From the IMG/VR virus record IMGVR_UViG_3300011113_000415: a DNA stretch of 64,000 nucleotides. One strand, written 5' to 3'. The notes beneath the pieces are model-generated. The model made no database searches and had not been told where the DNA came from. It saw nothing but the letters and a program-made list of their open reading frames with translations. This document shows positions 57,566 through 62,648 of the stretch, in pieces. Made by a program: the position numbers and the translations under genes. Positions within the stretch are counted from its first letter, which is position 1, and every line of letters starts with the position of its first letter. The stretch is from a virus (lineage: Duplodnaviria; Caudoviricetes).

Positions 57566-57626
57566 CAATCAGTTGTTGAGCGATAGCGAAACAACAGACT
57601 TGCGTAGCAAGTCTTGAAACTGATTG
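57566..57626. repeat. Nested inverted repeats (three-way junction/cruciform), possibly also a terminator for the minus strand
   Basis: Outer CAATCAGTT/AACTGATTG (9 bp), arm AGACTTGC-GTA-GCAAGTCT (8 bp), arm GTTG...CAAC containing GC-GATA-GC; T-tract on the minus strand. Confidence 0.8.
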
Positions 57627-57633
57627 AACAATC

Positions 57634-57870
57634 TTAGAAAAATGGTAAGCCCGATTTTTTTGTTGTCTCTAAATTCTCTTTGATTAAACTGCCAATTGCT
57701 TCTCGATCGCTGGAACTCAAGGCCATGGCTTGGTCATAGGTTAATCCTCCCCGCATGTACCAACTGAATTTTATTGCCTCTTGTTTGATCTGTTGACATT
57801 CCTTGTCCATGGTCTCTATCAACTGATTGATTTCCTGGGGATCTGAGATCAGGAGGCGTCCCCGAAAAAA
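57634..57870 (-). CDS. gp51-like baseplate hub assembly chaperone segment, probably reached by -1 frameshift (or an internal ATG at 57810)
   Basis: WYMRGGLTYDQAMALS..DRE.I..LIKENLE resembles the gp51 pattern; in the -1 frame of the upstream gene. Confidence 0.65.
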   Translation of the reverse strand, partial: FFRGRLLISDPQEINQLIETMDKECQQIKQEAIKFSWYMRGGLTYDQAMALSSSDREAIGSLIKENLETTKKSGLPFF

Positions 57871-58688
57871 CTTGCCATGTCCAAGGTAAAGGGTTGTGCG
57901 TACTGGTGACTGCATTCTGTGCAGGTCAACTCAACTGGTTTGATCTCACTGGCTTGTTTGAGACTGATGGCATGATCTCTCAGTTGAGCAAATGTTCTGC
58001 TGTCACAGTTGCGTAAGAATTCCAAAATGTGATCAACTTCAGTCACCAGTGCATCTGGTGTCTTGATGGCGCCAATGCTTTGAGCAATGGTTTTGAGCGT
58101 GAGTTCATTGATGATCTTCATACTCCGGTTCAACTGCTCCAGTTTAGCAGTTTCTTCGATTTGATCACTGTCAATGCTTCTCAAGGCCTGTTGCTGTTCA
58201 AACTGTGTTTGATTGTTTTGATTGACGTCTCGGTAGTTGATGGGTCGGAAATAAAATTCAAGATTACCCAAGGCCAGGCTCTTGTCATAGTCTCCAGGAC
58301 GTATTTGATCATTGATGGCTCGTAGATCTAGTGTGAGATCTTCGTTGTGATTGCAACTGGGGCAGGTGCTGGCAATGTCCATGCCATGGCCAAAACTGGC
58401 AATTCTTATGGCCACCAACACAGCGTCAATGTCAGTGCTGGGCATGGCCCAAGGGTCTCTAATGCTGGGCACACAACTCTGGATCACACTCACAATGGCT
58501 GATCCGTTGAACAAGGCATCAGGTGTGCGATAGGTTATTTCATCTACTGCTGTCATGGGCAATACAGGCAATTCGCCATTGGGCGGCATGTTTAAACTGC
58601 CTGTAGGGTAGAATTTGCCTCCTGAAGGCAGTCTAATGTGTATTGCAGGTTGTCTAAAGTACTGACTGAGGGGGTTTGGTTGTTGCAT
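57849..58688 (-). CDS. gp26: Baseplate hub assembly protein, T4 gp26-like
   Basis: LPSGGKFY, PMTAVDE, D.DAVLVAIRIASFG, CPSC and CTEC zinc-binding pairs. Confidence 0.75.
   Translation of the reverse strand: MQQPNPLSQYFRQPAIHIRLPSGGKFYPTGSLNMPPNGELPVLPMTAVDEITYRTPDALFNGSAIVSVIQSCVPSIRDPWAMPSTDIDAVLVAIRIASFGHGMDIASTCPSCNHNEDLTLDLRAINDQIRPGDYDKSLALGNLEFYFRPINYRDVNQNNQTQFEQQQALRSIDSDQIEETAKLEQLNRSMKIINELTLKTIAQSIGAIKTPDALVTEVDHILEFLRNCDSRTFAQLRDHAISLKQASEIKPVELTCTECSHQYAQPFTLDMASFFGDAS
57864..57870 (-). promoter_or_regulatory. Putative -1 ribosomal frameshift heptamer T TTT TTC
   Basis: agT TTT TTC four codons before the stop of the gp26-like gene, correctly phased X XXY YYZ. Confidence 0.65.
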
Positions 58689-58700
58689 ATTTTTCTCCGG

Positions 58701-58712
58701 TAAATATAATTA
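58701..58712. promoter_or_regulatory. Back-to-back late-type elements: TAAATA (+, 58701-58706) and palindromic TAATTA (58707-58712)
   Basis: Only 23 nt separate divergent starts 58688 and 58712; GGAG SD for the minus-strand gene. Confidence 0.5.
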
Positions 58713-60853
58713 TGGCCACATCCTTAACCCCAGAAGAAATTCAAGCCGCATTTGATCAATTCAATACAGAATTCAATCGAACTGGCAAAGTCAGTAAAGA
58801 AACAGCAGAAGCCTTTGCTGATGCCAAAGCCGGCATCAAAAACTATACCTATCAACTGAATCTCAGCCTAAAACAACTGGGCACTTCCATGTTGAACTTT
58901 GGCGAGTCCCTGAAAGACGGCAAACAAGGTGCATCGGTCTACAACGACAGTATCCAAGCAGGTGCCGACGCAATTGATGCATTTGCTGCCAAATTTGGTA
59001 TCTTGGGCAGGATCATTGGTGGCTTGGCCACAGCCGGTGCTAGATATGTGGTAGAAGTCAACAAGCAGAGTGACAAACTGTTCGAAAGTTATCAGTCACT
59101 CAGCAAGTTTGGTGCTGCCAGTGCTTCGGGCATGAGTGGTGTGTTCCAAAGCATGCAGGACTTTGGCTACAATATTGAACAACTGGGCGACTTTGGTAAT
59201 CTTATCAAACAAAATGCCGAATCATTGGCCTTGATGAGTGGCACGGTAAATCAAGGCACTCGAGTGTTCACTGACGTGGCCAAAGGAATTCAGAGAAGCG
59301 GCCTGCAAACAGAATTCCTGCGCATGGGCATGACCGTGAATGATATCAATTCGGGCATGGGCGGTTATTTGAGAATACAAACATTAACAGGAGCCGCACA
59401 GCGCAAGACCACAGGCGAACTCACACAAGGTGCCGCAGAGTATATCAAAAATCTGGATCTGTTGTCTAAACTCACAGGCAAAAACGCAGAAACAATTCAA
59501 CAAGAACGCGAAGCCAGAATGATGGAACAGCGATTTGTTGCTGTGCAAATGGAACTAGAAGACAAAGCCGCACAGGCCAGACTTGCTGGTAATGAGGCAC
59601 AGGCCAAGGCATTTGAAACACAAAAAGCATTAAATGATGAACTTATAGACAGGGCACCAACACAAGAACTGAAAACAGCAATTATAGGTGCTATGACCGG
59701 ATTTGCAGGCACCAACAAAGAAGCAGAAAAACTTTTGAGAACTGCACCAGTGGCATTTCAAGCAATAGCCAGACAAAGTGGCGAGGCTCCGGGTGCAATA
59801 CTTGACATGATTGGTACAGAAGGACAACAAAGAAGGCGCGAATTTACGGGATTGGGTAAAGTTGGTGGATTTGACGATGTGTTTATTCAATTGGGATCAA
59901 TTAACAAACTTCGCAAAGACAATCTTGAGCAAGAAAAGATAGCCGCAGAAGAGGCAAAAGATCAAAGGAAAAATTTAGACAAGGCCACAGAAGCACAGGT
60001 AGGATTGCGTCAGGAACAGATGGAAGCAACTCGTGCGCTTCAGACCTTTATCAATCAAGGTGTAAATCGTACCACCAGGGCTATGTCAAATCTCAGTGGT
60101 GCTATTGAAACTGTAACTAGCAAAATACCCGGCACAGGTACTACCACAGGCACCACGGGCACTGGACGGGGTAACGAAGCAGTGGGTGGCACAGCCAGCA
60201 TGGTCAATCAGACCACTACCATACTGAATCAGGCTGGTCAAGTGGTGGAACAGCGTCAAGGTGGCAACCGCAACTGGCGCAACAACAATCCAGGCAATAT
60301 TGAATACGGACCTTTTGCGATCAGCATGGGTGCCACTGGCAGTGATGGCAGATTTGCTATATTCCCTACCATGGACATGGGATACAAAGCCGCTGATGCA
60401 CTCATGAAAGGCAAGAACTATCAAAATCTCAGCATTGCTGATGCAATCAAACGCTGGGCTCCTCCTAATGAAAATGATACCAGAGCCTATCAACAGAGAT
60501 TCCAGGCAGCAGGATTTGATCTAAACAAACGCTACAGTGACCTTTCTCCAGTAGAACAACGCAGGTATTTAGAAACCAAGATGATGGTAGAAGGGGGCAA
60601 AGCAGGCACAGTCACAGCAGGCCCTGGAGGCACAATGTCGGGACCTGTTGACCGTTATGCATCTTCGTTGAGAAACGTGGACACCAATATAGCCAGTGCC
60701 CAGGCCTCAACTGAAACTTCATCTGCAATCAACAATGCTAGAAATCAAAATGATCTAATTGTGATACAAATAGCCAAAATGGATGAACTGATTGGGCTTA
60801 TGAAAGCCAATAATTCTATCAACAGCAAGATACTGCAACGAGCCCGGAACTAA
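58712..60853 (+). CDS. Tape measure protein with C-terminal NNPGNI lysozyme-like domain; start moved to ATG 58712
   Basis: Long Ala/Gln/Gly-rich helical region; RNNNPGNIEY...GRFAIF...G.KA...Y...IADAIKRWAPPNENDT..Y. Confidence 0.7.
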   Translation: MATSLTPEEIQAAFDQFNTEFNRTGKVSKETAEAFADAKAGIKNYTYQLNLSLKQLGTSMLNFGESLKDGKQGASVYNDSIQAGADAIDAFAAKFGILGRIIGGLATAGARYVVEVNKQSDKLFESYQSLSKFGAASASGMSGVFQSMQDFGYNIEQLGDFGNLIKQNAESLALMSGTVNQGTRVFTDVAKGIQRSGLQTEFLRMGMTVNDINSGMGGYLRIQTLTGAAQRKTTGELTQGAAEYIKNLDLLSKLTGKNAETIQQEREARMMEQRFVAVQMELEDKAAQARLAGNEAQAKAFETQKALNDELIDRAPTQELKTAIIGAMTGFAGTNKEAEKLLRTAPVAFQAIARQSGEAPGAILDMIGTEGQQRRREFTGLGKVGGFDDVFIQLGSINKLRKDNLEQEKIAAEEAKDQRKNLDKATEAQVGLRQEQMEATRALQTFINQGVNRTTRAMSNLSGAIETVTSKIPGTGTTTGTTGTGRGNEAVGGTASMVNQTTTILNQAGQVVEQRQGGNRNWRNNNPGNIEYGPFAISMGATGSDGRFAIFPTMDMGYKAADALMKGKNYQNLSIADAIKRWAPPNENDTRAYQQRFQAAGFDLNKRYSDLSPVEQRRYLETKMMVEGGKAGTVTAGPGGTMSGPVDRYASSLRNVDTNIASAQASTETSSAINNARNQNDLIVIQIAKMDELIGLMKANNSINSKILQRARN

Positions 60854-60869: not shown

Positions 60870-62648
60870 ATGGCTGGATGGCGAAAATATTTCAAAGTGG
60901 CTGACCTCTCAGGTCAGATGAGCCCAATTTCGGGCGGCAGAGATTCAGGACTGCCGGGTTATCCCCGCAACGATGGCCGCGGAACCAATCTGGCACAGAC
61001 AGATTTTGCGTTTCGCAACTATGCATCACGACTGCCAGAAGTGTACTCAGGACACCCAAATCGTATCGAACGCTACAATCAGTATGAAAACATGGATGCT
61101 GACTCCGAAGTCAATGCCTGTTTGGACATTATTGCTGAGTTCTCTACACAACTCAGCGAAGACAACAACACGCCTTTTGAAATCAACTACAACGACGAGC
61201 CCACTGATCATGAAATAGAGATTATTCGCAAGCAGATGCAACAGTGGACCAAACTCAATAAACTGGATCAGCGCATCTTCAAACTGTTCCGCAATACCAT
61301 CAAGTACGGTGATCAAGTGTTTGTGCGTGACCCCGAAACATTTGAAATGTACTGGGTGGATATGAGCAAGGTCAGCCGAGTGATTGTGAACGAATCCGAA
61401 GGCAAACGTCCAGAGCAGTACATCATTCGTGACATCAATCCCAACTTCCAGAATCTAACTGTGGCAGCCAAGACCACCACAGACTTCATGGTCAACCCAC
61501 CCACAGGCGGTGGCTACAATCAAGGCTCGGGCTATACCATGCCCAATACTGCCATGACAGGCACCAGCAGATTCAGCCGTGCTGTGAACGAAACCTGTAT
61601 TGATGCCAAACACGTGGTGCATCTAAGTCTTAACGAAGGCTTGGACACATTCTGGCCCTTTGGCAAATCCATACTTGAAAACATTTTCAAAGTATTCAAA
61701 CAAAAAGAACTGTTGGAAGATGCCTTGTTGATCTATCGTGTACAACGTGCTCCTGAGCGCAGAGTGTTCAAGATTGATGTGGGCAACATGCCATCACACT
61801 TGGCTATGGCCTTTGTGGAACGTGTGAAAAACGAAATGCACCAGCGCAGAATTCCCACATTTGGTGGCGGTGGTGGCAATATCATGGATAGTAGTTACAA
61901 TCCGCTATCAATCAATGAAGACTTCTTTTTCCCAACAGGTGCAGACGGACGTGGCTCATCAGTAGATGTGTTGCCCGGCGGTCAAAATCTAGGCGAAATC
62001 GACGATTTAAAGTATTTCAACAATAAAATGGCCCGTGGTTTGCGTGTGCCTAGCAGTTATTTGCCCACTGCTCCCGATGATTCTGAGCGCACCATGCAGG
62101 ACGGCAAAGTGGGCACAGCATTGATTCAAGAGTACAGATTCAACCAGTATTGTGAGCGATTACAAGCACTAATCATGCAGAAACTGGATGACGAATTCAA
62201 GATGTTCCTGCGCTGGAGAGGCTTCAACATTGACGCTGGCCTGTTCCAACTGCGATTCAATCCGCCACAAAATTTTGCCAGTTACCGTCAAGCCGAGATG
62301 GACACAGCACGTATCTCTAGTTTTACCAGCCTAGAGCCCTTGCCCTACATGTCAAAACGCTTTATGCTAGAGCGTTTCTTGGGTCTCAGCAAGGACGAAA
62401 TTGAACGCAACGAAACCATGTGGCGTGAAGAACGTGATCAGCCTGAACTGCAAACCACACAGGGACAGGATCTACGTTCAATTGGCATCACCCCAGCCGG
62501 CATGGAAACTGATATTGCCACTGGTGAAGAAATGGCCAACTTACAGGCACCTGGAGCAGAGGGTGCTGTATCAGCCGCCCCTGCTGGCGCTGTAGGAGGA
62601 ACTATTCCCGGTGTTCAAGCACCGGCTGCCACACCCGCAGGATTATAA
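60870..62648 (+). CDS. gp20: Portal vertex protein, T4 gp20-like
   Basis: LEDALLIYRVQRAPERRVFKIDVGNMP, EDFFFP, LPGGQNLGEIDDLKYF, RVPSSYL. Confidence 0.95.
   Translation: MAGWRKYFKVADLSGQMSPISGGRDSGLPGYPRNDGRGTNLAQTDFAFRNYASRLPEVYSGHPNRIERYNQYENMDADSEVNACLDIIAEFSTQLSEDNNTPFEINYNDEPTDHEIEIIRKQMQQWTKLNKLDQRIFKLFRNTIKYGDQVFVRDPETFEMYWVDMSKVSRVIVNESEGKRPEQYIIRDINPNFQNLTVAAKTTTDFMVNPPTGGGYNQGSGYTMPNTAMTGTSRFSRAVNETCIDAKHVVHLSLNEGLDTFWPFGKSILENIFKVFKQKELLEDALLIYRVQRAPERRVFKIDVGNMPSHLAMAFVERVKNEMHQRRIPTFGGGGGNIMDSSYNPLSINEDFFFPTGADGRGSSVDVLPGGQNLGEIDDLKYFNNKMARGLRVPSSYLPTAPDDSERTMQDGKVGTALIQEYRFNQYCERLQALIMQKLDDEFKMFLRWRGFNIDAGLFQLRFNPPQNFASYRQAEMDTARISSFTSLEPLPYMSKRFMLERFLGLSKDEIERNETMWREERDQPELQTTQGQDLRSIGITPAGMETDIATGEEMANLQAPGAEGAVSAAPAGAVGGTIPGVQAPAATPAGL

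Follow-up and report, generated by a model that had tools for sequence, protein, structure and literature searches.

A predicted −1 frameshift in one gene for short and long forms of a T4 gp26/gp51-like baseplate-hub assembly protein in an uncultured giant phage

A stretch of 64,000 nucleotides from a tailed virus (Duplodnaviria; Caudoviricetes; IMG/VR record IMGVR_UViG_3300011113_000415), here called the window, carries on its minus strand a gene (57634-58688) that is predicted to be translated in two reading frames. We propose, with a probability of roughly 85%, that this single gene yields two forms of a baseplate-hub assembly protein, one short and one long, through a programmed −1 frameshift. 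Most ribosomes would remain in frame 0 and stop at 57849, giving a gp26-like short form of 279 amino acids. A minority would slip back one base with two tRNA-Phe on UUU UUC of the sequence U UUU UUC (57870-57864), re-pair on UUU UUU and then translate 76 codons in the −1 frame. The product of the slip would be a long form of 351 amino acids, of which residues 1-275 come from frame 0 and residues 276-351 from frame −1, with a four-helix C-terminal tail and with gp51 of phage T4 as its counterpart.

The open reading frame (ORF) of the short form (58688-57849, minus strand) matched the Pfam family PF12322 (T4_baseplate) over residues 62-275 with 56.8 bits against a cut-off of 24.5, and in the PHROGs scan it matched phrog_150, 'baseplate hub', at 1.3e-16. 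On direct reading a GGAG is located 8-11 nt 5' of its ATG. Two CxxC pairs of zinc-ribbon-like type are present (CPSC, residues 109-112, and CTEC, residues 255-258), their four cysteines were invariant across 20 long forms, and T4 gp51 and gp26 likewise have cysteine pairs (CPKC and CPEC). The N-terminal product is identified, from these sequence features, as a gp26-like baseplate-hub assembly protein. The 120 best database relatives of the window protein all stop at the same place, with lengths of 267-288 amino acids. Given that none of them exceeded 288 amino acids, the alignments indicate that the split arrangement is strictly kept in the lineage of the window, which is part of a highly abundant group of giant phages known only from uncultured material, with close relatives on contigs of up to 349 kb. 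The best sequencing runs listed for it carried freshwater or aquatic labels, only at small word shares.

The last codons of the short form read AGT TTT TTC GGG GAC GCC TCC TGA, with the stop codon TGA at 57851-57849. The slippery heptamer T TTT TTC (57870-57864, minus strand) is in the X XXY YYZ phase, both of its codons are read by tRNA-Phe and four sense codons separate it from the TGA. This agrees with a first-pass annotation of the window, made from its sequence without database searches, which had placed a correctly phased heptamer four codons before the stop and had described a −1 frame of 76 codons and a fusion of about 351 amino acids as against 279. The annotation had also named conservation of the heptamer across homologues as a check on its proposal, and such conservation was found. 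The heptamer T TTT TTC was in phase in 31/31 related IMG/VR loci (37-100% protein identity), and an in-phase T TTT TT(C/T) was present in 9/9 cultured jumbo phages (Atu_ph07, Phosso, PA5oct, XacN1, Salmonella 7t3, Ecwhy_1, EJP2, Kaldavass and XaC1), in which the hub protein is only 27-33% identical; the variant T TTT TTT is that of XacN1. The 76-codon −1 tail was kept in all of the 31 IMG/VR loci but one, where it was truncated by the end of the contig. Across these loci and the nine cultured phages, 1-13 codons separate the heptamer from the frame-0 stop and the −1 tail is 69-79 codons long.

The codons used at the site were compared with those used elsewhere in the gene. All 28 unique close relatives have AGT or AAT followed by TTT TTC, with zero synonymous change at the heptamer, while in the rest of the same gene Phe is encoded by TTT and TTC at a ratio of 130 : 96 and AGT makes up only 37% of the Ser codons. 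Given that the heptamer is invariant in 28/28 sequences when Phe codons elsewhere are divided 130:96, its conservation is estimated to be far more than expected by chance. A homopolymeric run at this place could also act during transcription, if RNA polymerase adds one U at the run of six T so that in some mRNAs the long form needs no change of frame, and the outcome would be the same pair of short and long products. However, the run is only six long and productive slippage by bacterial RNA polymerase usually needs about nine or more A/T. The conserved, phased heptamer, including its 3' C/T and the preceding T, fits re-pairing of tRNA instead, and we consider transcriptional slippage very unlikely.

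The −1 frame tail (57634-57864, minus strand; 76 codons and TAA) is predicted to be the helical C-terminal tail of the long form. After the slip the −1 frame reads FF-RGRLLISDPQEINQ..., also written FF-RGRLLISDPQEI..., and is open from 57864 to the TAA at 57636-57634. In the alignment of the tail (A2) the mean column identity was 74% and the motifs RxRLL, PEEI, W-[YF]-MRGG and ER..I..LIK.N.ETTKK were seen; the tail alone matched no family in Pfam or PHROGs. Upstream of the heptamer, the variability by codon position was 0.81/0.52/1.22, which is a frame-0 coding pattern. In the four-codon overlap between the heptamer and the frame-0 stop it was 0.46/0.41/0.89 when read in frame −1, whereas the same columns gave 0.52/0.99/0.58 in frame 0. 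The next 13 codons, located 5' of any ATG, gave 0.86/0.72/1.33 in frame −1, and 3' of the tail stop the variability was flat. The first −1 codon encodes Arg in 27/27 sequences, through CGG, CGA, CGC and CGT, and the same place read in frame 0 would give G, E, A, V or D. Given that Arg is maintained in all 27 sequences through four synonymous codons, the comparison indicates that the −1 frame is under selection already at its very first codon past the slip site, which is predicted by a frameshift and not by an internal start. The pattern shows purifying selection on both frames, with the frame switch exactly at the heptamer.

These comparisons also bear on whether the two frames could be an artefact, that is, the result of a sequencing indel in a homopolymer or of a long-form gene that is decaying and pseudogenised. 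Homopolymer runs are indeed error-prone in some sequencing chemistries, but the same run of six T followed by C (T TTT TTT in XacN1), the frame-0 stop and the −1 tail recur in 31 independent metagenome contigs and in nine independently sequenced cultured phages. The 120 best relatives end alike, at 267-288 amino acids, and both frames are under purifying selection, and an artefact or pseudogene can in practice be dismissed.

A more serious alternative is that two separate proteins are made, with the tail translated alone from an ATG at 57810 or 57915, or by termination-reinitiation, as a free peptide of about 58-93 amino acids. The in-frame ATG at tail residue 19 (57810-57808, minus strand) is present in 25/27 close relatives, and the ATG at 57915 sits within the hub gene. 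An ATG overlaps the frame-0 stop (as ATGA or TAATG) in Atu_ph07, Phosso and Ecwhy_1, a TTG is found there in some close relatives, and annotators do call short separate ORFs. However, the codon overlapping the frame-0 stop is CTG in the window and TTA in three relatives. The ATG at 57810 is replaced by CTG/CTT in the relatives L038/L039 and is absent in Phosso, PA5oct and Ecwhy_1. This loss in five relatives, together with the retained heptamer, is the opposite of what the first-pass annotation had said would refute its proposal, namely an unconserved heptamer and a conserved independent start at 57810. Direct reading showed no good Shine-Dalgarno sequence for either in-frame ATG, in agreement with the annotation, which had seen no convincing one for the downstream ORF. 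The 18 codons 5' of the ATG at 57810 are conserved as protein, as are the codons from the heptamer to any candidate start, including the Arg found in 27/27 sequences. In the relatives the −1 frame extends 5' of the heptamer for no more than 0-36 codons, in most cultured lineages it is closed 0-6 codons upstream, and the tail ORFs in the protein database have been given at least five distinct start positions by gene callers. Taken as a whole, the comparison indicates that the −1 tail has no conserved start of its own. Separate translation would further leave unexplained the invariant synonymous positions of the heptamer and the collinear long forms that exist in one frame, described below, and we judge it to be improbable.

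Long forms encoded by a single ORF were found when the tail profile (A2) was searched against 1.84 billion representative proteins. There were 473 protein matches, including 20 clusters of single-ORF proteins of 319-351 amino acids that have the tail as their in-frame C-terminus, and PF12322 was found in the N-terminal part of the two that were looked up. The junction in these proteins (pattern ..LD.S..FR.KLI..EEEI) is collinear with the predicted trans-frame junction: in both, the CxxC pair is followed by about 10 residues, LD, F-R-x-K/R-L/I and EEI. No slippery heptamer was found at the long-form junction in the two loci for which the junction DNA was read, L054 and L055. In L055 (L055:820-2744) two genes are arranged in tandem, encoding a 294-aa short form followed by a 346-aa long form. 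In a confident AlphaFold model of one long form (pLDDT 87.9, pTM 0.83) the second zinc ribbon is followed by the tail, folded into four packed helices. The best structural matches of this model in BFVD were T4-like 'baseplate hub assembly' proteins; aligned ranges were not given, so that these matches speak for the family only and not for the tail.

A stimulatory element, either a 3' structure or an upstream Shine-Dalgarno sequence, is common but not obligatory at −1 sites. The hairpin TCCTG-ATC/GAT-CAGGA (57854-57833, minus strand) that the first-pass annotation had reported 9 nt downstream of the heptamer is present, but a stimulatory role for it was not supported. No consensus structure 3' of the heptamer was obtained with RNAalifold (0 pairs in 14 relatives), the 80-nt fold of the window itself was no more stable than shuffled sequences (z = −0.01), and the hairpin stem is broken in L008 and L009. 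With 0 consensus pairs and z = −0.01, the hairpin was rejected as a conserved stimulator. Low shift rates are the rule at unstimulated slip sites, including that of lambda G/GT, and given that no stimulator was found at the site described here we infer that the slip would occur at a low rate and that the long form would be a minor product. Among the classes of A-site motif prone to −1 shifting in E. coli, U_UU.Y ranks second (PMC4066793).

The relation to the T4 proteins was examined with profiles. As the first-pass annotation had stated, T4 encodes 26 and 51 separately: genes 26 (208 aa) and 51 (249 aa) are transcribed away from each other, both match PF12322 and there is no heptamer. The two T4 genes are divergent paralogues. 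T4 gp51 consists of the PF12322 domain (1-201) and a C-terminal tail of about 48 amino acids that gp26 is without, and in phrog_150 gp26 reaches profile position 235 and gp51 position 280. T4 gp26 ends with ..EFFELL, coded GAG TTC TTT, which is not slippery, and gene 25 comes next. When the ORF and the tail were compared with T4 gp26, gp51 and gp29 by pairwise BLASTP, no significant match was obtained, the method being too insensitive for this comparison. Once the tail was fused to the window protein, the phrog_150 match ran across the junction to profile position 255, while an NCBIfam scan of the fused protein gave no match; the fused query used in the PHROGs, NCBIfam and homologue searches was one Arg short at the junction. 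When a profile of 39 long forms was aligned with a profile of 17 gp51 sequences using hhalign, the alignment ran end to end through the frameshift junction (E = 1.7e-5). The tail alone matched the gp51 profile with E = 4.1e-4 and a score of 24.3, compared with 10.2 +/- 2.0 for column shuffles, of which 0/200 reached the observed score. First runs with 13 close gp51s only had given weak tail matches (E = 0.014-0.26), and the test became informative only once four divergent gp51s had been added to the 13.

These alignments suggest that T4 gp51 corresponds to the 351-aa product in its entirety, and that the −1 frame encodes only the part equivalent to the gp51 C-terminal tail. The first-pass annotation had described a fusion of a gp26-like and a gp51-like chaperone; the frameshift that it predicted has strong comparative support, whereas the downstream frame does not correspond to an entire gp51 homologue. 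The proteins of the window and of T4 resemble each other in belonging to the same family over the N-terminal ~275 residues, in the two CxxC pairs and in the occurrence of a long form with a helical tail and a tailless short form that terminates shortly past its Phe-Phe motif. They differ in that T4 has two divergent paralogous genes, while the window and the jumbo phages have one gene and a −1 slip. A single PF12322 gene was found in the complete heptamer-bearing genomes of Atu_ph07, PA5oct, 7t3 and Ecwhy_1, compared with two, and no heptamer, in T4. The tail is also longer in the window (about 76 aa) than in gp51 (about 48 aa), and its middle helix has no counterpart in gp51. The hub assembly chaperones listed for T4 include gp26 and gp51, the latter being required yet absent from the particle (PMC3004832). 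By homology with T4 gp26 and gp51, both forms would assist the assembly of the central hub and the tape measure as non-structural chaperones, and the long form would be required in small quantity.

Two further observations concern gp51 homologues in other phages. In the RB43-like T4 relatives GAP161 and KLB25 (L058:1201-2494 and L059:1201-2495), genes 51 and 26 are in tandem on one strand, after 48 and 54. Given that the pair is tandem in RB43-like phages and divergent in T4, the 26/51 paralogue pair has been rearranged within Straboviridae. The record of Acinetobacter phage Berthold (MN709128.1) labels its gp51 homologue 'tape measure protein assembly chaperone'; no publication explaining this label was found.

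Several points weigh against a frameshift at the heptamer. Its support is comparative throughout, and the sequences share ancestry, so that the counts do not represent independent events. In L055 the short-form gene keeps an in-phase T TTT TTC even though its −1 frame closes after one codon. Because this heptamer has no usable −1 frame, a conserved Phe-Phe motif may account for part of the heptamer conservation; the L055 sequence may be left over from an ancestor in which the frameshift operated, or the Phe-Phe motif alone may favour it. In the lineages with the ATGA or TAATG overlap, termination-reinitiation could yield a separate tail peptide. No conserved 3' structure was found, direct reading gave no obvious upstream Shine-Dalgarno-like stimulator, and the efficiency of the shift could be very low. 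Finally, the similarity between the tail and gp51 is moderate, covering about 30 aligned columns.

Next to the hub gene lies a gene on the plus strand (58709-60853) for a protein of 714 amino acids, counted from its ATG, with a C-terminal lysozyme-like domain. The N-terminal two-thirds of this protein are rich in Ala, Gln and Gly. Residues 525-701 gave an endolysin-like match to phrog_873, and residues 521-601 matched PDB 9vvp_L 'Gp29' (5.8e-10) and the endolysin 7q47. In the Atlas, the closest cluster that bears a name is 'tail tape measure' (0.93), which is a lead only. A homologue of this gene is syntenic in Phosso, PA5oct, 7t3 and Ecwhy_1, between the portal and the hub gene, and the PA5oct homologue is annotated as a virion protein by mass spectrometry. 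The product is a candidate tape measure protein with a lytic domain, an assignment for which these matches serve only as leads.

The starts of the 714-aa gene and the divergent hub gene are only 20 nt apart and each promoter must therefore sit inside the opposite gene. A T4-type portal gene (60870-62648) follows the 714-aa gene. On the other side of the hub gene, the region between the end of the tail ORF and a GIY-YIG SegE-like gene (56771-57199) is without a long ORF (57200-57630). Further away lies an ORF for a radical SAM protein of 308 amino acids (55784-56710, plus strand; PF04055, 35 bits, CxxxCxxC near the N-terminus), which shares about 90 nt with the 3' end of a gp46-type SbcC-like gene.

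Frameshifting in tail assembly genes has well-known precedents, and Xu, Hendrix and Duda reportedly described in 2004 a conserved −1 frameshift of tail assembly chaperone genes. As in lambda gpG/gpGT, a heptamer close to where the first frame ends would let ribosomes slip by −1, so that a chaperone absent from the virion is made in a short and a C-terminally extended form; the site is without a strong stimulatory structure and the gene adjoins a likely tape measure gene. The heptamer is, however, G GGA AAG in lambda and U UUU UUC here, and the hub gene is divergent from the candidate tape measure gene and not located upstream of it on the same strand. Scans of Pfam and PHROGs gave no match to families of tail assembly chaperones, only PF12322 and phrog_150. 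The suggestion of the first-pass annotation that gp26 and gp51 are the counterparts of lambda G and T thus stood with respect to the shared logic but not as membership of the same family, given the missing chaperone-family match and the divergent candidate tape measure gene. The comparison with lambda G/GT and P2 E/E+E' is an analogy of logic. A similar likeness is seen with E. coli dnaX (tau/gamma), where slipping by −1 on a heptamer of the X XXY YYZ type yields two isoforms with a common N-terminus. In dnaX the heptamer is A AAA AAG, there are an upstream Shine-Dalgarno sequence and a downstream hairpin, about 50% of the ribosomes shift and the shifted product is the shorter one, whereas here the shifted product would be longer and no conserved stimulator was found. 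Full-text searches of the open-access literature found no report of a frameshift in genes of the gp26/gp51 type.

If the frameshift occurs as predicted, the conserved frameshift rule of tail genes, known from lambda-like and P2-like tails, would be extended to another protein family in T4-like giant phages. In every cultured jumbo phage that was checked, PA5oct, Atu_ph07, XacN1 and the two E. coli Asteriusviruses Ecwhy_1 and EJP2, the annotation contains no long form and shows the tail as assorted 'hypothetical' mini-ORFs, and a predicted 351-aa assembly protein is therefore missing from those proteomes. The finding would also link two long-puzzling T4 proteins as the short and long versions of one chaperone and suggests that the ratio between them matters. 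A more tentative idea, towards which we remain on balance sceptical, is that the gp26/gp51 family does in T4-like and jumbo myoviruses the work that G/GT does in lambda: the tape measure would be coated by the short form and, through the helical tail of the rare long form, docked onto the hub or tube while that is being built. The layout of one gene plus a frameshift would then be widespread and possibly ancestral, resolved by duplication in T4 and others, and such an equivalence would explain how T4 gp51 acts 'catalytically' in small amounts.
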